Shown piece by piece: positions 49,075 to 58,043 of a stretch of 64,000 nt of DNA. The stretch is from NCBI GenBank assembly GCA_049967855.1, contig JBMFRX010000002.1, positions 32,001-96,000 on the forward strand, written 5' to 3'. The DNA comes from Caldisericaceae bacterium (GTDB lineage: Bacteria > Caldisericota > Caldisericia > Caldisericales > Caldisericaceae). Within the stretch, counting starts at the first letter, position 1. Every line of letters begins with the position of its first letter. Both the position numbers and the translations under genes were made by a program. The notes beneath the pieces were generated by a model, which did no database searches, was not told the origin of the DNA, and saw nothing but the letters and a program-made list of their open reading frames with translations.

Positions 49075-49098
49075 AAAGGGCGCTAGAAAGCGCCCTTT
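49075..49098 (+). terminator. Intrinsic terminator / repeated hairpin, copy 1
   Basis: AAAGGGCGCT-AGAA-AGCGCCCTTT after htpX. Confidence 0.8.
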
Positions 49099-49168
49099 TG
49101 CTATAATTTGCTAATGTGATGGCAAGGTATTTTTCAAATTTGCATTTTTTTATTATAATTACGCCAAT

Positions 49169-50425
49169 ATGGACAGAGTGCTTAAGTGTGTAAGGTGTGG
49201 AAAAGAGTACGATTTATTTTCGTCTCGTTATAGGTGTGATTGCGGGGGACTGCTTGAGGTTGAGATAAAGGATCCCATAAGTCCATCACTAAAGGAAGTT
49301 TTCCAGAGTAGAAAGCTTTCAAATAACCCAGCTGATTTTAGTAACGTTTGGAGATATAGAGAATTAGTTCTCGACATTCCATGTAATTCCATTGTAACTC
49401 TTCCAGAAGGAAGGACAAACCTTTACAGAAAAGATGTTTTGGGAATGGAAGTGTTTTTCAAACACGAAGGCGAAAACCCAACAGGTTCGTTTAAGGATAG
49501 AGGAATGACTGTTGGTGTAAGTGTTGCAAAATACCTTGGTTACAAAGTTACTGCTTGTGCGTCAACAGGAAATACTTCTGCATCTCTTTCAAGCTACTCG
49601 GCTCATGCAGGCTTAAAAAGTATTGTATTCATACCAAAAGGGCACGTAGCCATAGGAAAACTTTCGCAGGCGCTGGCTTATGGAGCTTATGTTTTTGAGA
49701 TTGCTGGTGATTTTGACGATTCGATGAAAATTGTTGAAAAGATAAGCGAAGAGTATAAAGTGTACCTGCTGAATTCTCTTAATCCACTTCGTCTTGAAGG
49801 CCAAAAGACAATTATCATAAATATACTCGAGGAACTTGGTTGGCAGGTGCCAGACTGGATAATTCTTCCCGGAGGAAACCTTGGCAATACAAGCGCTTTT
49901 GGAAAGGCTCTTAAGGAATTATACAAATTTGGTTTTGTTGACAAGATTCCCCACATTGGAGTAATTCAGGCAGAAGGAGCATCTCCTTTTTACAAAGCAT
50001 ATCTGCGTGATTTTGAAGAGTTCGAGCCTGTAAAGGCAGAAACCATTGCCACTGCAATTCGTATAGGAAATCCAGTAAACTATGAGAAGGCAAAGGAGAC
50101 TATAAAGTTTACGAAGGGCGTTGTGGAAGCCGTTTTTGATAAAGAAATCCTTGAAGCAAAGCAAAATATAGATCGGCTGGGCATTGGATGTGAACCTGCG
50201 TCTGCTGCAAGTCTTGCAGGACTTAAGAAACTCGTTGATAGAGGAATTATAAAGAAAACCGATACTGTTGTTTTGTTGCTTACGGGAAGTATCTTAAAAG
50301 ATCCTGAAACAACAATTAAATTACATTCTGGTCAGCTAGGCAGTTTCCCCGAAAATAGATTCTTCAAAATAGATAATTCAAATGCACTTGATAAAATTTT
50401 AGGCTCTCTGTTTTTGGATAGGTGA
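49169..50425 (+). CDS. thrC: Threonine synthase (with N-terminal zinc ribbon)
   Basis: CVRCG..CDCGG, NPTGSFKDRG, CASTGNTSAS, PGGNLGN, CEPASAA. Confidence 0.95.
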   Translation: MDRVLKCVRCGKEYDLFSSRYRCDCGGLLEVEIKDPISPSLKEVFQSRKLSNNPADFSNVWRYRELVLDIPCNSIVTLPEGRTNLYRKDVLGMEVFFKHEGENPTGSFKDRGMTVGVSVAKYLGYKVTACASTGNTSASLSSYSAHAGLKSIVFIPKGHVAIGKLSQALAYGAYVFEIAGDFDDSMKIVEKISEEYKVYLLNSLNPLRLEGQKTIIINILEELGWQVPDWIILPGGNLGNTSAFGKALKELYKFGFVDKIPHIGVIQAEGASPFYKAYLRDFEEFEPVKAETIATAIRIGNPVNYEKAKETIKFTKGVVEAVFDKEILEAKQNIDRLGIGCEPASAASLAGLKKLVDRGIIKKTDTVVLLLTGSILKDPETTIKLHSGQLGSFPENRFFKIDNSNALDKILGSLFLDR

Positions 50426-52806
50426 GATTTATGATCGTGCTAAAATTTGGTGGCACATCTGTAGGAAGTGCAAAGGCAATAAAACAGGTATATGAAATTG
50501 TTTCAGGTATCACTGAGTCAAGAGTTGTTGTTGTGTCAGCGATGAGCGGTGTTACAGACAGCCTTATTAAAGCATTGACTCTTGCTGCGTCTAATGACAA
50601 ATCTTATGAAGAAGTATTCAACACTATTAAGGATAAACACAACGATGTTTCTCTTGAACTTTTTGGGGAAGAGATCGATTCAATTAAAGAACTTCTTTCA
50701 GAGCTTGAGCAAATTTTGTTCTCTATATACAAATTAGGCGAAGTTTCAGATAAAGCAAATGCACTTGTGCAGTCTTTTGGCGAAAGACTTAATGCAAGAA
50801 TTGTGTCGAGATATTTTCAGGCGAAGGGTTTGAAATCGTCTCCAGTTGATGCAACAACTTTTTTGATAACAACTACTGACTATCTTGACGCAAATCCACT
50901 ATACGATGAAAGCAAAAGAAGAGCCTCGAAGGTTTTAGGCAGATACATAAAAGAGAATTCTGTTCCTGTAGTAACAGGATACGTGTGTAATGATAAATCT
51001 GGCTCAATCACGACGCTTGGAAGGGGCGGTTCCGATTTTACCGCAACAATTTTGGGCAGACTCCTTGATGCAAGAGAAATCTGGATTTATACGGATGTTA
51101 ATGGAATACTTACCGCAGATCCAAAGATTGTAAGAGAAGCAAAGACTATCGAGAAGTTAAGTTTCAGAGAGGTTAGAGAACTCTCTTATTTCGGAGCAAA
51201 GGTAATGCACTCAAAATCACTTATCCCTGCAATGGAGGGAAATATTCCGATTCGGGTAAAGAATACATTTAATCCCGAAGGACCACATACTCTTATCTCA
51301 GCTGAATCAGCAAGTTTTAATGCAAAAGCAATAACCTCAATCAAGGATGTCGCTCTTGTTTCTATTCTTGGTTTGGGGATGCAGGGACTTAAAGGTATTT
51401 CTAAAAGAGTCTTTGAAACTGCTTCAAAGAGTAATTTTAATGTTGTTATGATCGCACAGTCTTCGTCAGAGCAAAACATAGATATCTTTGTCAGAGAAAG
51501 CGATAGCGAGAAATTTGTTACTGCGTTAAAATATGAATTTGAAAACGAGATGAAACTTAAACTAATTGATATGGTCAGTGTCAGAAAAAATCTTTCCGTC
51601 ATTTCCATTGTTGGCGAAAACCTCAATAATATACAAAACGTAAAGAAGGAAATATTTAGAATCACTTATTCTTACAATATAAATGTAATTTCTGTTGTGC
51701 AGGGTTCATCTCTAGATAGCATATCCTTTGCAGTAAAAAGAAGCGATTTGCAAAAGACAATCAGAGCACTGCATACAGAGTTAGGGCTCATTGGGCATAA
51801 GCTTAAAACAATTAACATCTTCCAATTCGGAGTAGGTGGCGTAGGAAAGGCACTAATAGAACTTACATCAGAGAATAGTAAAATAACTGAAGAACTCGGA
51901 ATCAAAATAGACTACCTAGGACTTGCAAGGTCTAGTTCATTTGCAACTAGTGAAGAGGTAAAGGAGCATATAGATAAGATGGATTTTGGCTTTAAACACT
52001 CAGGCAGTCCTTTGAACTACATAAAAACACTACCAAGAAATACTGTGATTTTGGATTTAACAAACTCCACTGAAATTGCAAATGATTTACTTGAACTTCT
52101 TTCTTTAGGATACTATGTGGTTACCTCAAATAAAAAGAACCTTGCAGCTGACTTTGACGCATTCCAAAAGTTCACGAAGAATAACAGGCAATTCCTATTT
52201 GAAGCGACAGTCGGAGCATCTCTTCCTATAATAAAGACGATTAAGGATTACTTAAGAACGGGAGATGTTGTTGAAAAGATTATTATGCTTCCATCAGGAA
52301 CGCTTTCATTTATATTTACACTTTTCAATACGGGCGTAGACTTGAAGACAGCAATTAATAAAGCGATTGAATTTGGATATACTGAGCCGAATCCAATTGA
52401 AGATCTTGTGGGCATGGATCTACTGAGAAAAGGAAAAATTATTGCATATCTCATTGGAAAGAACTTTGATTCTTCTCAAATCGAGTTTGAATGTTTCACA
52501 AAGGCAAAGAATATAGAAGAATTTTTTGAAAACGATTTTGAACGGTTTCTTAAAAAAGTAGAAAAGCTTTCACGAATTGGTCTGGTCTATCCTGTTGTTG
52601 AAATAAGCGATAAATTGAAAATTCATTTGACTGCCTTTGGAAAAGATTCCTCTTTTGGAAGCTTGAGGGAAGGAGAAAATGTTTTCGAGATTTATTTGAG
52701 GAACTTCTCTGGGATGCCTGTAACCATAAAAGGTTTGGGTGCAGGATACAGAGTAACCGCCGAGGCTGTCCTTCAGGATATTTTGAGTTTGGAGGCTTAT
52801 ATATGA
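50422..52806 (+). CDS. thrA: Bifunctional aspartokinase / homoserine dehydrogenase
   Basis: LKFGGTSVG, LGRGGSD, TDVNG, two ACT domains, GVGGVG, VTSNKK, EATVGA, GYTEP. Confidence 0.92.
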   Translation: MRFMIVLKFGGTSVGSAKAIKQVYEIVSGITESRVVVVSAMSGVTDSLIKALTLAASNDKSYEEVFNTIKDKHNDVSLELFGEEIDSIKELLSELEQILFSIYKLGEVSDKANALVQSFGERLNARIVSRYFQAKGLKSSPVDATTFLITTTDYLDANPLYDESKRRASKVLGRYIKENSVPVVTGYVCNDKSGSITTLGRGGSDFTATILGRLLDAREIWIYTDVNGILTADPKIVREAKTIEKLSFREVRELSYFGAKVMHSKSLIPAMEGNIPIRVKNTFNPEGPHTLISAESASFNAKAITSIKDVALVSILGLGMQGLKGISKRVFETASKSNFNVVMIAQSSSEQNIDIFVRESDSEKFVTALKYEFENEMKLKLIDMVSVRKNLSVISIVGENLNNIQNVKKEIFRITYSYNINVISVVQGSSLDSISFAVKRSDLQKTIRALHTELGLIGHKLKTINIFQFGVGGVGKALIELTSENSKITEELGIKIDYLGLARSSSFATSEEVKEHIDKMDFGFKHSGSPLNYIKTLPRNTVILDLTNSTEIANDLLELLSLGYYVVTSNKKNLAADFDAFQKFTKNNRQFLFEATVGASLPIIKTIKDYLRTGDVVEKIIMLPSGTLSFIFTLFNTGVDLKTAINKAIEFGYTEPNPIEDLVGMDLLRKGKIIAYLIGKNFDSSQIEFECFTKAKNIEEFFENDFERFLKKVEKLSRIGLVYPVVEISDKLKIHLTAFGKDSSFGSLREGENVFEIYLRNFSGMPVTIKGLGAGYRVTAEAVLQDILSLEAYI

Positions 52807-53828
52807 AAAAGAAAGTTGCAATTATGGGAGCGACGGGGATGGTGGGGCAGAGATTTGTGAGTTTGCTTGACGAACACCCATATTTTGAGGTGACAAGTCT
52901 ATATGCAAGTAAACATAGCGAAAATAAGAAATACGGGGATACTGTAAATTGGATGCTTGAGAAGCCAATTCCGCAATATGCGCAATCGATGACCGTGAAA
53001 TCATTTGAAGGAAATGAAGGGGTTGAAGAAAGTATCTTGTTCTCAGCACTTCCTGCTGACGTTGCAAACATCTTAGAAGTGGAGCTTGCAAAGGCTGGAA
53101 AATTCGTTTTCTCTAATACATCTTCCCATAGATATGACCGTTATGTCCCAATCCTGATACCAGAGGTAAACCCTGATCACTTTGAAGCAGTGAGATTTCA
53201 AGAAACAAGAGGATTTATTGTAACTAATGCGAACTGTTCTACAACTGGACTCGTAATACCTTTAAAAGCACTTTTAGAAAGATTTGCCATTCGTTCTGTT
53301 TTTGTCGTGACTATGCAAGCAATCTCTGGAGGAGGATTAAATGGTGTTTCTGCTCTTCAGATTACTGGGAATATAATTCCTTTTATTGAAAAAGAGGAAG
53401 AGAAAATTGAGCTTGAAACTCGTAAAATTCTTGGTAGCTTCAATGGAGACTTCATCTTGAATGACATTTTTATCTTTGCAAGAGCAAATAGAGTACCTGT
53501 TCGTGAAGGTCATACAGAAGTGGCATTTGTTGACTTAGATGCAAGTGTTGAAGAGGTGAAAGAGGCGTTTTCGGACTTTAGAGGGATTCCTCAGGAGCTA
53601 TTATTGCCAACTGCACCAAAAGAAGTAATCAGAGTATTTGATAATGTTAATCATCCTCAGCCGATACTTGATGTAAATGCAAATTCTGGTATGAGCGTGA
53701 GTGTTGGACGAATAAGAAAAAGTGGAAACTTCATAACCTTTACTCTTCTCTCTCACAATACAGTGAGAGGAGCTGCAGGCGGTAGTGTTCTCAATGCAGA
53801 ATTTGCCTACAGGAGAGGCTGGATATGA
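52803..53828 (+). CDS. asd: Aspartate-semialdehyde dehydrogenase (archaeal/fungal type)
   Basis: GATGMVGQRF, IPEVNPDH, TNANCST, QAISGGG, HNTVRGAAGG. Confidence 0.95.
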   Translation: MKKKVAIMGATGMVGQRFVSLLDEHPYFEVTSLYASKHSENKKYGDTVNWMLEKPIPQYAQSMTVKSFEGNEGVEESILFSALPADVANILEVELAKAGKFVFSNTSSHRYDRYVPILIPEVNPDHFEAVRFQETRGFIVTNANCSTTGLVIPLKALLERFAIRSVFVVTMQAISGGGLNGVSALQITGNIIPFIEKEEEKIELETRKILGSFNGDFILNDIFIFARANRVPVREGHTEVAFVDLDASVEEVKEAFSDFRGIPQELLLPTAPKEVIRVFDNVNHPQPILDVNANSGMSVSVGRIRKSGNFITFTLLSHNTVRGAAGGSVLNAEFAYRRGWI

Positions 53829-54835
53829 GTTTTAGAAGAGGCACCTTAAACGACATCTTTAAAGATTACATTGTGTTTCGGGAGCTTAGACCGATAAAAG
53901 AAGGGTTATCTAGTTTTGAAGAGTTAGGTAATAAATCCCATAAGGGATTCCCAAGGAAAAAGGATAAGGAATATGCTGCCATTCTTTGCCAGATTTTCAG
54001 AAGTGCAATGAGTTTTTCCAAAATTGTTTACATTGGGGACACGTTTTTGTCTGATCTTGCTGTGATTGAAAATATCAAAGAACTCGGATACGATGTTTTT
54101 GGTGTTATTACTGATGAAACTGGCAAAAACTCCGAAAGCAAATATCCTTACATAGTGTTTAATAACTCCTGGGATCAATTGAGTAATTATGTTGTCGACA
54201 AGATAAACAATGAGACAGTGCTTGTTGTTGATATTGATAAAACTGCAATTGGAGCTCGTGGGAGAAATGACTCGTCAGTTGACAAAGCAAGGACCGATGC
54301 GATTTTAGATTTAGCAAAAAGAGTATTCAAAAACCCAGAAAAGGACGAGTTTATGAGGCTTTACCATTATATACATGCAAAGGACTTCTTAAATTTCACA
54401 CAGGATAATCAGGATATTGTTTCGATACTCTCCCTTATTATATATTCTAACGCAATTTCTTTTGATGATTTTTCAAGTTTTGCGAAGACACGAAAGTTTG
54501 AAGAATTCATTCAAGATGTTAAAGTACAAGGCGAGCTCGTGCCTCTGGTAGACGAGGTGAGGACAAATATTAGGGAAGACAATGCAACACTTTTCCCTAC
54601 CTTTAGAAGAATTGAGCTTGAAAAGACTTTAAATAGAATGGATTTTTTGCCAGATGATACGCCAATTGAAAAACTTCTTGAAGAAGAAATATTAATCACG
54701 GGAGAAGTTTATAGAATTGGGATACGTGCAAACGAGAAAGGTGCACTTGTTTTTGGCGTTTCAGACAAACCAGAGAAAGCCTCATTTAATGATAGCAAAG
54801 CACTATTCAGAAAGACAGCCAAAATATATCCATAG
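53825..54835 (+). CDS. Hypothetical protein with circularly permuted HAD-superfamily motifs
   Basis: PRKK (motif III), YIGDTFLSD (IV), LVVDIDKT (I), FGVSDKP (II); ATGA overlap with asd. Confidence 0.6.
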   Translation: MSFRRGTLNDIFKDYIVFRELRPIKEGLSSFEELGNKSHKGFPRKKDKEYAAILCQIFRSAMSFSKIVYIGDTFLSDLAVIENIKELGYDVFGVITDETGKNSESKYPYIVFNNSWDQLSNYVVDKINNETVLVVDIDKTAIGARGRNDSSVDKARTDAILDLAKRVFKNPEKDEFMRLYHYIHAKDFLNFTQDNQDIVSILSLIIYSNAISFDDFSSFAKTRKFEEFIQDVKVQGELVPLVDEVRTNIREDNATLFPTFRRIELEKTLNRMDFLPDDTPIEKLLEEEILITGEVYRIGIRANEKGALVFGVSDKPEKASFNDSKALFRKTAKIYP

Positions 54836-54908: not shown

Positions 54909-54932
54909 AAAGGGCGCTTTCTAGCGCCCTTT
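54909..54932. terminator. Bidirectional terminator / repeated hairpin, copy 2 (reverse complement of copy 1)
   Basis: AAAGGGCGCT-TTCT-AGCGCCCTTT between the convergent HAD-like gene and pckG. Confidence 0.8.
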
Positions 54933-56888: not shown

Positions 56889-58043
56889 TTAAATGTTGAA
56901 ATTGCTCCTAATTTGTAAGAATTTACTAACACTTTTGCCTGGCGCGATCGGTATTCCAAGATTTAAAAGAGTAGATTCAAGAGCGGCTAACGTAACAAGT
57001 ATATCATTTGAATTTATGAACCCCATATGTCCAACTCTGAAGGCTTTGCTTTTCAGTTCTCCCTGGGTTGTTGCTATTTCTACGTTGTAATTTTCTCTCA
57101 TTTTCTTTACAATTTCATCGGCATTTACTCCTTCTGGTGAATAAACTCCAGTTACGCAGGGCGATGCGTCAGCATCATTTGCAACAAACTTAAGCTGCAA
57201 TTCGGCAATAGACTTTCTTGTGAGCTCCTTGCAGAGCTCGTGTCTTTTGTATGCATTTTGCAGCCCCTCTTCGTAAAGCATTTTTAATCCCTCATTAAGA
57301 CCAAAACAGTCTGATACAGGGAAAGTGGTGAATGGCTGTCCTAGGTCTCCATTCTTTTTCAGTTCCTTTATGCTAAAATAAAAAGCGTCAGTTTCGTTTG
57401 AAAGAGCATATTCAAGTGCACGTTTGCTAACTCCTACTATCCCAATTCCTGGAGGACTCATAAGGCCCTTCTGCGACGCTGCCACAACAACATCAAGATT
57501 CCATTCTTCCATGTTTATTTCTGCAATCCCTATTGAGCTCACTCCATCAACTATTATAAGGGCATCTGTAATTTGCTTTATTTGATTCGAAATTTCCTTA
57601 ATATTGTTTATGACCGTGGACGATGTTTCGTTATGCGTTAGGAACACCGCTTTGATGTCTGTATTTGCCTTGAGTACTTCTAATATTTCTTGAGGTTCTA
57701 CAGCTCTTCCCCACGGTATCGCAAGTCTAATTGCATTTCTTCCATGAGCTATGTTAATTTTGTAGAAACGCTCTCCGAAGAATCCAGTATCGGCGATAAG
57801 TACTTTATCTCCCCTGTGAGTGAAATTTTCCACGGCAAGCTCCATTGCTCCTGTGCCTGATGATGGAATGAGAAAGACATCCTGTTTGCATTTAATCATT
57901 TCTTTAAGCATTGACACTGAATCTAAAAATATTGCTTTGAACTTAGGACCTCTATGGTTGGTCATCGGCTTCTGCATTGCTGCAAGAACGCGCGGTGGAA
58001 GAGGTGTTGGGCCTGGGATCATTAAATATTCTTTATCAAGCAT
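56889..58043 (-). CDS. Class V PLP aminotransferase (serine-pyruvate / SerC-like)
   Basis: LMIPGPT, SSGTGAME, HNETSS, ASQKGLMSPPG, FRVGHMG. Confidence 0.9.
   Translation of the reverse strand: MLDKEYLMIPGPTPLPPRVLAAMQKPMTNHRGPKFKAIFLDSVSMLKEMIKCKQDVFLIPSSGTGAMELAVENFTHRGDKVLIADTGFFGERFYKINIAHGRNAIRLAIPWGRAVEPQEILEVLKANTDIKAVFLTHNETSSTVINNIKEISNQIKQITDALIIVDGVSSIGIAEINMEEWNLDVVVAASQKGLMSPPGIGIVGVSKRALEYALSNETDAFYFSIKELKKNGDLGQPFTTFPVSDCFGLNEGLKMLYEEGLQNAYKRHELCKELTRKSIAELQLKFVANDADASPCVTGVYSPEGVNADEIVKKMRENYNVEIATTQGELKSKAFRVGHMGFINSNDILVTLAALESTLLNLGIPIAPGKSVSKFLQIRSNFNI

Follow-up and report, generated by a model that had tools for sequence, protein, structure and literature searches.

Gene X, the last gene of a threonine operon, encodes a protein that we read as a circularly permuted, Mg2+-dependent HAD phosphotransferase of the phospho-Asp type; it would make O-phosphohomoserine and so replace homoserine kinase. 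We put the probability of this reading, which draws on sequence comparisons and a structural model, at about 0.78. The first-pass annotation had proposed, as an inferred activity, that a permuted HAD phosphotransferase fills the ThrB step, and the proposal finds support in the makeup of the operon and in the mutual exclusion with thrB in three genome sets. The fold, the empty ThrB step, this context and mutual exclusion, Ask-X fusions, and the precedent of ThrH all speak for replacement.

Gene X closes a threonine operon in a genome with no thrB match

The operon had been described as thrC, thrA, asd, and a fourth, closing ORF chained by 4-nt overlaps, in a window (the whole 64,000-nucleotide stretch of DNA that was analyzed) without thrB. 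Our ORF calls agree with this arrangement and with the position given for the closing ORF (Table 1), and no thrB was found in the window or in the whole genome. The thrC/thrA overlap depends on a GTG start; homologs align from thrA residue 4, so translation may really begin at an ATG three codons downstream. No obvious Shine-Dalgarno sequence was seen for thrC. An identical inverted copy of the terminator-like hairpin that follows gene X lies at 49075-49098.

Table 1. Features of the threonine operon and of gene X (window coordinates)
Feature	Position	Strand	Basis or remark
Promoter-like site TTTTCA-17-TATAAT, 9 nt 5′ of the thrC start	49131..49159	+	Consensus match only
thrC, threonine synthase	49169..50425	+	TIGR00260, 258 bits, above cut-off
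thrA-type aspartate kinase/homoserine dehydrogenase	50422..52806	+	PF00696 + ACT + PF00742; TIGR00657 above cut-off
asd, aspartate-semialdehyde dehydrogenase (asd_EA type), 4-nt overlap with gene X	52803..53828	+	TIGR00978, 410 bits, above cut-off
Gene X (336 aa), candidate homoserine phosphotransferase with a circularly permuted HAD fold	53825..54835	+	ORF call, motifs, half-by-half comparisons
K45, the motif III lysine, within conserved P43-R44-K45	53957..53959	+	K in 201/204; aligned to HAD motif III Lys
Motif IV with the predicted Mg2+ ligands, G71-D72-T-x3-D77, following strand 66-71	54035..54055	+	Residues 40-84, P = 4.5e-5
Motif I D136-I-D138-K-T140 after strand 131-136; predicted nucleophile D136, predicted acid/base D138	54230..54244	+	P = 1.2e-5
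Large helical C1-position cap, residues 144-304, predicted substrate-specificity surface	54254..54736	+	
Motif II S313-D-K-P after strand 308-312	54761..54772	+	P = 0.002
Terminator-like hairpin between gene X and convergent PEP carboxykinase gene	54909..54932	.	

A whole-genome search for thrB and thrH, suggested as a check, found neither gene in a source genome that is 99.99% complete. TIGR00191 (ThrB) had no match above its cut-off, the genome's two GHMP kinases being IspE and GalK, and TIGR02535 (HomK), TIGR02137 (ThrH), and TIGR00938 (ThrB-alt) had no match at E ≤ 0.01. The gene X protein itself scored above the family cut-off of none of these four models. It had no match in Pfam or NCBIfam (E ≤ 1) and none among PDB sequences, whether searched singly or with profiles of the whole protein or of either half.

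The gene X protein appears to be a circularly permuted HAD

All of the HAD motif residues listed in the first-pass annotation (K45, G71-D72..D77, D136-I-D138-K-T140, and S313-D-K-P) are in place in gene X. The canonical order I-II-III-IV is absent; motif III comes shortly after the N terminus and is followed by motif IV, motif I, the large helical cap, and motif II. Among 204 aligned relatives, K45 is conserved in 201, G71 in 204, D72 in 202, D77 in 203, D136 and D138 in 203 each, T140 in 200, and S313 in 201 (with Thr in the other 3). Conserved residues of the cap are R156, T192-x-D194-N-Q-D197, R261, E264, and E294. A loose III-IV-I-II pattern matched 1 of 768 genome ORFs of at least 250 aa, namely, gene X; since the pattern was derived from gene X itself, this count speaks for specificity only.

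The claim that the order is III-IV-I-II was borne out by both profile-profile and structural comparisons, in which each half matched the opposite half of canonical HADs. These comparisons support the assignment of residues 38-128 to the C-terminal half (motifs III and IV) and of residues 128-336 to the N-terminal half (motif I, cap, and motif II), as predicted from sequence profiles and an AF2 model (pLDDT 94.9). When three separate segments of gene X were compared with 19 canonical HADs by hhalign, the P values were 4.5e-5 (template columns 149-192), 1.2e-5 (columns 4-16), and 0.002 (columns 103-132), motif II giving the weakest match; none of 12 control pairings did better than a P value of 0.064. 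In the first of these alignments, K45 and G71-D72..D77 fell on the HAD pattern KP..VGDs.D. The undivided 128-336 segment was informative only when split: its best match was misregistered, and one control reached a P value of 0.036.

In the structural comparisons, all 7 of the Atlas structure rows from outside the family paired residues 38-128 with HAD models, 3 of them PF13242, with query TM scores of 0.59-0.66 over 77-88 residues, each row falling below the tool's naming bar. For residues 128-336, the model aligned end to end with HAD N-terminal halves (6iah 1-165, Z 5.2; 3ddh 5-141, Z 4.8; β-PGM 5olw 1-128, Z 4.8). Compared half by half, the putative Rossmannoid core gave middling scores (Z 4.3-5.2, TM 0.59-0.66). 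With the whole chain, Foldseek returned nothing at E ≤ 0.001, and a VIA-wide search returned generic α/β folds only (best Z, 7.1), with no HAD in the top 50. Sequential aligners would be expected to give such an outcome on a permuted chain, and we do not take it as a sign of a new fold. A likeness of the cap to T4 lysozyme (Z about 6) was taken as a generic helical arrangement.

Other searches yielded leads or little. The Atlas feature search gave no usable match for residues 38-128 and, for the whole protein, HAD matches scoring 0.78, which we treat as a lead only. PF00702 matched 2 of 103 family members, with a best E value of 0.003. Our search of the literature (open-licence PMC and bioRxiv) found no account of the gene X family or of a permuted HAD. 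Gene X looks like a naturally permuted HAD that escapes Pfam, NCBIfam, Foldseek, and sequential structure search alike.

By analogy with HAD chemistry, D136 would accept the phosphoryl group of a donor, while D72 and D77 would bind Mg2+ and S313 and K45 the phosphate. The closed cap would shut out water and bind homoserine, whose hydroxyl D138 would activate, and O-phosphohomoserine would pass on to ThrC.

Relatives of gene X are linked to asd and other threonine genes

In GTDB species genomes, at least 542 stretches carry relatives of gene X, and the named ones, e.g., those of Caldisericum exile and Chloroflexus spp., are labeled hypothetical protein. No relative was found on plasmids or among 78 candidates from viral contigs. 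We checked, as had been suggested, whether homologs sit beside thr genes where thrB is missing: at least one of ask, hom, asd, and thrC was present at 66 of 80 loci (asd at 58, ask at 46, thrC at 32, and hom at 27), while 7 of the 80 had none of the four despite >2.5 kb of upstream DNA. Wherever asd was present at these loci, it lay directly upstream of X (58/58), overlapping it or within 10 nt of it in 37 cases. At 17 of 20 further loci, asd likewise lay directly upstream of X, and at 13 of these 20 it was the sole thr gene near X.

In a quick maximum-likelihood tree of the family, the thr-linked clade spans Caldisericota, Chloroflexota, Bipolaricaulota, WOR-3, Thermotogota bins, and an archaeal bin, and the asd link holds in every one of its deep branches, at ~30% identity and through changing gene orders. 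Four clusters of proteins (78-82% identity) are Ask-X fusions. In a sister clade that shares the core motifs, the genes lie in histidine-kinase/receiver/Mrr signaling cassettes, and the motifs alone therefore leave the substrate unfixed.

Gene X and thrB are nearly mutually exclusive

The relatives of gene X are almost confined to microbes without the usual homoserine kinase. In Caldisericota, thrB was present in 0 of 20 X carriers versus 21 of 73 other genomes; in a Chloroflexota sample, the counts were 0 of 22 and 180 of 229; and among 50 further carriers, only G134 had both genes. The Fisher values for this exclusion (6e-14 and 0.005) overstate it, since the genomes are related. The rest of the pathway is retained, with hom kept in 48 of 50 and 18 of 20 X carriers and thrC in 78 of 80, and X is both thr linked and complementary to thrB where hom and thrC are kept. 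Besides G134, the exceptions to X as the lone stand-in for ThrB are G100, G101, and G132, which have HomK, and G216, which has a ThrH-like gene scoring 210 bits against a cut-off of 223 (ThrH was searched for in 5 carriers and the source genome). TIGR00938 scored above its cut-off in 0 of 80 carriers. One carrier, G007, has X, ask, asd, and thrC and no hom match. Seventeen Caldisericota genomes with a hom match lack both X and thrB; in the 4 that were inspected, none of ask, asd, and thrC lay within about 6 kb of the hom-like gene, and on the strength of these 4 we did not count the 17 genomes against replacement.

The preference of X for asd over thrC and hom, together with the loci at which asd is its only thr neighbor, would also suit a plain HAD phosphatase tied to Asd, which might hydrolyze surplus aspartyl phosphate or a damaged metabolite while another enzyme makes O-phosphohomoserine; most HADs with DxD are phosphatases. 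We consider this improbable, because a housekeeping role gives no ground for the exclusion of thrB in Caldisericota and Chloroflexota and would leave nothing to fill the step, although the genome is nearly complete and the operon has every other thr gene.

The HomK-bearing carriers raise the idea that X is half of a replacement, making or regenerating the phosphoryl donor for HomK or another phosphotransferase. The gene order in L042 is ask-asd-X-homK-thrC, homK (with the HomK-type Glu) lies directly behind X in L044 and L047 as well, and HomK's own donor is given as unknown in GapMind 2026 Appendix 3. Such a role nevertheless seems quite improbable: HomK scored above its cut-off in just 3 of 80 carriers, the adjacency occurs at 3 of 100 loci, all of one clade and two of them identical, four intermediate HomK matches carry Lys, the mutase-type residue, and the source genome has no TIGR02535 match of any kind.

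Of 40 loci scanned, 4 (L034, L065, L067, and L099) have a SAM riboswitch upstream of the operon, and so some copies of X may be methionine controlled; no T-box was found in these 40 loci or in the window. The riboswitches, and an O-acetylhomoserine sulfhydrylase gene in L067, would fit an X whose product, O-phosphohomoserine or a related phospho-amino acid, serves chiefly methionine synthesis or another aspartate-family branch rather than threonine. Against this very improbable role, thrC shares the operon here and is present at 32 of 80 loci and in nearly all carrier genomes, and SAM control of ask-hom-asd is expected anyway, since homoserine feeds both branches.

That X is a passenger of an asd cassette, absent from thrB genomes through lineage history only, is hardly credible: the thrB-positive Caldisericota do all belong to one genus-level group, and the carriers are related, but the asd link persists across the deep branches, many phyla, and shifting gene orders described above.

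Candidate phosphoryl donors

If X is a homoserine phosphotransferase, its donor is a matter of speculation. We see somewhat less than an even chance that it is β-aspartyl phosphate made by aspartate kinase, the leading single candidate because of the coupling to asd, the Ask fusions, and its near-identical shape: a single carbonyl oxygen is all that separates aspartyl phosphate from O-phosphohomoserine. Ask would then supply an acyl phosphate whose phosphoryl group moves to Asp136 of X and on to homoserine, with aspartate returned, and the cost of both phosphorylation steps in threonine synthesis would fall on aspartate kinase. The chance that the donor is instead ATP, PPi, PEP, or another compound is close to even, again speculatively. 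Phosphoserine, the donor used by ThrH, is an unlikely and equally speculative choice. We mark it down, and find it doubtful for Caldisericota carriers, because a SerA-like gene was present in 0 of 14 Caldisericota carriers tested versus 63 of 66 other carriers, although a divergent SerA may exist. The source genome has one 2-hydroxyacid dehydrogenase, far below SerA cut-offs, and one ordinary-looking ParB-domain gene.

A bolder and rather unlikely proposal is that X is an ATP-independent aspartyl-phosphate:homoserine phosphotransferase and that the whole permuted family handles aspartyl phosphate, free in the metabolic clade and as receiver phospho-Asp in the sister clade. Were aspartyl phosphate the donor, the aspartate pathway would have a new wiring and threonine engineering a possible tool.

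Comparison with known systems

When gene X is set against canonical HAD phosphatases and mutases with a C1 cap (5olw, 3ddh, and 6iah; PF00702, PF13419, and PF13242), each of its halves can be superposed on or aligned with the half at the other end of their chains. Gene X differs from these enzymes in being permuted, in having DxDKT where they have DxDGT, and in having no Pfam match.

According to PMC1079889, ThrH is a HAD phosphoserine:homoserine phosphotransferase that bypasses ThrB. ThrH of Pseudomonas aeruginosa (TIGR02137) shares with X the HAD catalytic motifs, a cap in the C1 position, and phospho-Asp transfer to homoserine, which for X is proposed. Judged by its failure to match TIGR02137, X is not a ThrH homolog; its order is III-IV-I-II, and its cap has about 160 residues, whereas ThrH as a whole has about 200 aa (model length, 203).

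HomK/ThrB2 (TIGR02535, BT2402) is a nonorthologous replacement of ThrB, as X is proposed to be, and like X it occurs in thr operons and is complementary to thrB, but it is a phosphoglycerate-mutase-like metalloenzyme with a catalytic Ser and an unrelated fold, and it is absent from the source genome. GHMP ThrB (TIGR00191) and type II, APH-fold ThrB (TIGR00938) hold the position in the pathway proposed for X but are ATP-dependent kinases of other folds, likewise absent from the source genome. GapMind 2026 counts homoserine kinase as one of four steps that account for most of the gaps still left and lists it as missing in 16 of 208 prototrophs. If our reading is true, threonine auxotrophy calls would change for hot-spring, digester, and subsurface lineages, and X would add one more unrelated way of carrying out the homoserine kinase step.

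The threonine operon and its missing step

The first-pass annotation had placed a 336-amino-acid ORF (here X) at the end of a threonine operon without thrB and had offered it as a homoserine kinase substitute. X proved to be a real ORF, the last of four overlapping genes, and the ORF calls agree with a 4-nt overlap at every junction of thrC, thrA, asd, and X. Because homologues align from thrA residue 4, the true thrA start may be the ATG three codons downstream of the called start. Consensus matching, the sole basis for both, gave a promoter-like site upstream of thrC and a terminator-like hairpin 3′ of X, ahead of a convergent PEP carboxykinase gene. The thrC ATG has a TATAAT hexamer just 9 nt upstream and no obvious Shine-Dalgarno sequence; the operon may be leaderless. 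An identical 24-nt hairpin in inverted orientation brackets the operon; these are its only two copies in the genome, even allowing two mismatches, and the pair may record a past insertion or inversion event at a terminator.

Features of the operon, its surroundings, and related loci
Feature	Location	Strand	Description
X	53825-54835	+	
thrC			first gene of the four-gene overlapping run; TIGR00260 above cut-off
thrA-type gene			fused aspartate kinase/homoserine dehydrogenase; second in the run
asd			directly upstream of X; TIGR00978 above cut-off
TATAAT hexamer through thrC start	49154-49169		
24-nt hairpin, copy 1	49075-49098		
24-nt hairpin, copy 2	54909-54932		
Class V aminotransferase	56889-58043	-	PF00266; under every NCBIfam cut-off; two genes away from X
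Second ThrC-like gene, source genome	G000:C5:41880-43133		TIGR00260, 210 bits
SAM riboswitch	L034:3723-3846		
SAM riboswitch	L065:3378-3501		
SAM riboswitch	L067:262-398		
SAM riboswitch	L099:740-851		

The source genome is 99.99% complete, and a whole-genome search confirmed that it has no thrB: the sole match to TIGR00191, at 39 bits versus a cut-off of 168, is IspE, and the other GHMP kinase is galactokinase. TIGR02535 (HomK), TIGR02137 (ThrH), and TIGR00938 had no match at an E value of ≤0.01 in the whole genome, which therefore holds no known enzyme that makes O-phosphohomoserine. Single copies of Ask-Hom and Asd are encoded, alongside a pair of ThrC-like genes and two ordinary HAD matches. 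Two or three ThrC-like genes were also present in all 13 other X-carrying Caldisericota genomes tested.

A probable circularly permuted HAD fold

The AF2 model of X (pLDDT, 94.9; pTM, 0.91) has strands at residues 66-71, 91-96, 110-113, 131-136, 308-312, and 332-335; residues 144-304 form a helical block, and motifs IV, I, and II each coincide with a strand end. Whole-chain structure searches with X listed no HAD, as expected if the chain order differs, and the halves were therefore tested separately. The model of residues 128-336 spans N-terminal HAD halves end to end (6iah 1-165; Z, 5.2; rmsd, 4.5; 141 aligned); other N-terminal-half matches were 3ddh 5-141 (Z, 4.8) and the beta-phosphoglucomutase 5olw 1-128 (Z, 4.8), and 3kbb, 6w04, and 2hoq align likewise. 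Rows ranking above these (Z up to 6.2) were confined to the cap, with lysozyme-like helices, and were rejected. On a second look at this fragment, the top seven rows align all of it from the N-terminal region of the target; six are titled HAD, and the seventh, 1qyi, we take to be one as well. For residues 38-128, the Atlas structure comparison gave seven rows from outside the family, every one a HAD model (TM by query, 0.59 to 0.66), three of them on PF13242 and each below the family-naming bar.

Three segments of X were compared with 19 canonical HAD templates by hhalign. Residues 40-84 fell on motifs III-IV (template columns 149-192; P = 4.5e-5), residues 131-143 on motif I (columns 4-16; P = 1.2e-5), and residues 293-322 on motif II (columns 103-132; P = 0.002). 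Control pairings with Ask, Hom, Asd, and ThrC, 12 in all, did no better than P = 0.064. Faint Pfam HAD-clan matches in five homologues show the same swapped order. These lines, each modest yet concordant, bear out the circular permutation read from the motif order, and on the models X is very probably a circularly permuted HAD.

An unnamed, widespread family

X has no match in Pfam, NCBIfam, or PDB sequences, and its relatives are labelled "hypothetical protein" in nearly all source records; the closest named homologues, from Caldisericum, are 60 to 62% identical. A word-seeded search returned 112 proteins, X included, and an unseeded profile search 427 representatives (E ≤ 0.001). The family is real, unnamed, and widespread. 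By record title, its members come from Caldisericota, Chloroflexota, Bipolaricaulota, WOR-3, Thermotogota bins, and single Syntrophoarchaeum and Planctomycetales bins; the Planctomycetales entry (locus L047) is probably misbinned, its X being identical to that of Anaerolineales locus L044. The predicted catalytic residues are nearly fixed among 204 near-full-length members: K45 in 201, G71 in 204, D72 in 202, D77 in 203, D136 in 203, D138 in 203, T140 in 200, and S313 in 201 (plus 3 with Thr). Proteins P0198 (816 amino acids) and P0255 (1,041 amino acids) carry the permuted HAD C-terminally, behind regions without a Pfam match; the start of P0198 resembles, by eye, a nucleotidyl-cyclase domain.

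Gene neighborhoods

At least 542 stretches of GTDB genomes hold X relatives, and the best 80, which are not a random sample, were taken as loci. Homologues do adjoin thr genes, a check that the first-pass annotation had suggested: among these best 80 of at least 542, 66 loci carry one or more of asd (58), ask (46), thrC (32), and hom (27), and 14 have none, 7 of these with <1.4 kb of upstream DNA. All 58 asd-bearing loci in this best-80 set have asd immediately 5′ of X, with an overlap or a gap of ≤10 nt in 37. In 20 extra loci (from 19 of 22 Chloroflexota carriers of X and carrier genome G007), asd adjoins X in 17, and 13 of these 17 have no other thr gene nearby. Gene order around X varies among lineages, and the class V aminotransferase is not kept beside it. 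Ask-X fusions (P0116 and P0283 to P0285) fall in four 90% clusters with 78 to 82% mutual identity and so are not assembly errors, but a single lineage probably accounts for all of them. Of these proteins, three carry the wrong source label, "bifunctional aspartokinase / homoserine dehydrogenase 1," and contain no Hom domain.

SAM riboswitches were found upstream of ask-hom-asd-X operons in 4 of 40 loci scanned; no T-box was found in these 40. At Anaerolineales loci L019, L032, L036, and L078, X lies behind dCTP deaminase, mostly also with a class I aminotransferase gene, and thrC is convergent in three of them.

Mutual exclusion with thrB

Homologues occur almost only in genomes without thrB. 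X is present in 20 of 93 Caldisericota genomes (two broken or split) and thrB in 21, all of one genus-level group, with co-occurrence in 0/93. For Chloroflexota (251 genomes, evenly drawn at ≥95% completeness; thrB threshold, E ≤ 1e-25), the counts were 22 for X, 180 for thrB (161 above cut-off; one, G254, flagged unpublished), and 0/251 for both. Fisher tests of exclusion gave 6e-14 and 0.005, values that overstate it since related genomes are treated as independent. Fifty further carriers, hand-chosen from 70 non-Caldisericota loci and sharing G121 with the Chloroflexota set, included 1 with thrB and 48 with hom. Among 80 of the 91 known carriers, 78 have a thrC-like gene, 3 have HomK above cut-off, and 0 have TIGR00938 above cut-off.

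There are exceptions. HomK with the diagnostic Glu lies directly 3′ of X in L042, L044, and L047, which form one clade (support, 100); G134 has X plus thrB, G216 has X plus a ThrH-like gene slightly below cut-off, and G007 has X but no hom match. X and thrB are both missing from 17 hom-positive Caldisericota, and the four inspected (G016, G034, G084, and G086; L194 to L197) have a stand-alone hom-like gene without thr neighbors. These cases and the SAM riboswitches fit occasional redundancy, yet they keep rival functions alive. The hom-like gene of G016 and G034 adjoins a 597-amino-acid gene resembling, by eye, aldehyde:ferredoxin oxidoreductase, and a conserved gene of ~420 to 450 amino acids lies near it in all four.

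Proposed mechanism and phosphoryl donor

HAD chemistry uses an Asp nucleophile, an Asp acid/base, an Mg2+-holding Asp pair, a phosphate-holding Ser and Lys, and a closing cap. In X, D136 would be the nucleophile and D138 the acid/base, D72 and D77 would hold Mg2+, S313 and K45 would hold phosphate, and the cap is predicted to close the active site. Conserved charged residues of the cap (R156, D194, D197, R261, E264, and E294) could bind an amino-acid substrate. According to PMC1079889, ThrH is a HAD that passes phosphate to homoserine via a phospho-enzyme.

As donor we offer, tentatively and as less likely than not, beta-aspartyl phosphate, the Ask product and Asd substrate; no genes are linked to X more tightly than ask and asd. 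This compound is one carbonyl oxygen apart from O-phosphohomoserine, so a single pocket could take donor and product, and an acyl phosphate passes its phosphoryl group to an alcohol with a strongly favorable free energy. Shared regulation alone can also explain the operon position and the fusion. Phosphoserine seems unlikely as a universal donor, because a SerA-like gene occurs in 63 of 66 non-Caldisericota carriers versus 0 of 14 Caldisericota carriers and the one 2-hydroxyacid dehydrogenase of the source genome reaches 137 bits versus a cut-off of 454; a divergent SerA or the class V aminotransferase leaves some doubt on this dismissal.

A sister clade in signaling cassettes

Divergent members, among them proteins P0200, P0208, P0210, P0213, and P0227, mostly carry DxQT and SDRP and branch apart from the rest in a quick tree of 54 rows (SH-aLRT, 99). 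K315 is invariant in the thr-linked clade, where 188 of 189 members also have K139; both are altered in the sister clade. None of ask, hom, asd, and thrC was found in 12 metagenome loci (L153 to L164) retrieved with the sister-clade alignment, and 11 of the 12 have receiver-domain neighbors, six by Pfam and five read by eye. The five upstream genes scanned are GAF-plus-HATPase histidine kinases, and two downstream receivers bear an Mrr-type nuclease domain. The recurring cassette comprises a histidine kinase, one or two receivers, a ~220-amino-acid domain without known identity (a separate gene or an N-terminal fusion), the permuted HAD, and a receiver. It looks like an undescribed signaling or defense system; from these neighbors, the permuted scaffold would also serve a cassette built on phospho-Asp chemistry.

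Comparison with known systems

The empty step, the thr-gene context, and the exclusion with thrB uphold the proposal that X substitutes for ThrB, and we put at roughly 0.8 the probability that X is a circularly permuted HAD filling the homoserine-phosphorylation step. Searches of openly accessible literature found no description of the X family or of a permuted HAD. For comparison we used PMC9026213, GapMind 2026 (bioRxiv 10.1101/2024.10.14.618325; journal PMC13759103), PMC1079889, and PMC6957218; the six text-searchable files of the GapMind 2026 supplement (PMC13759103) do not mention Chloroflex, Roseiflexus, Caldiseric, Anaerolinea, or Syntrophoarchaeum. X may be likened to ThrH and to HomK in its way of working, but it stands outside both the ThrH and the HomK families.
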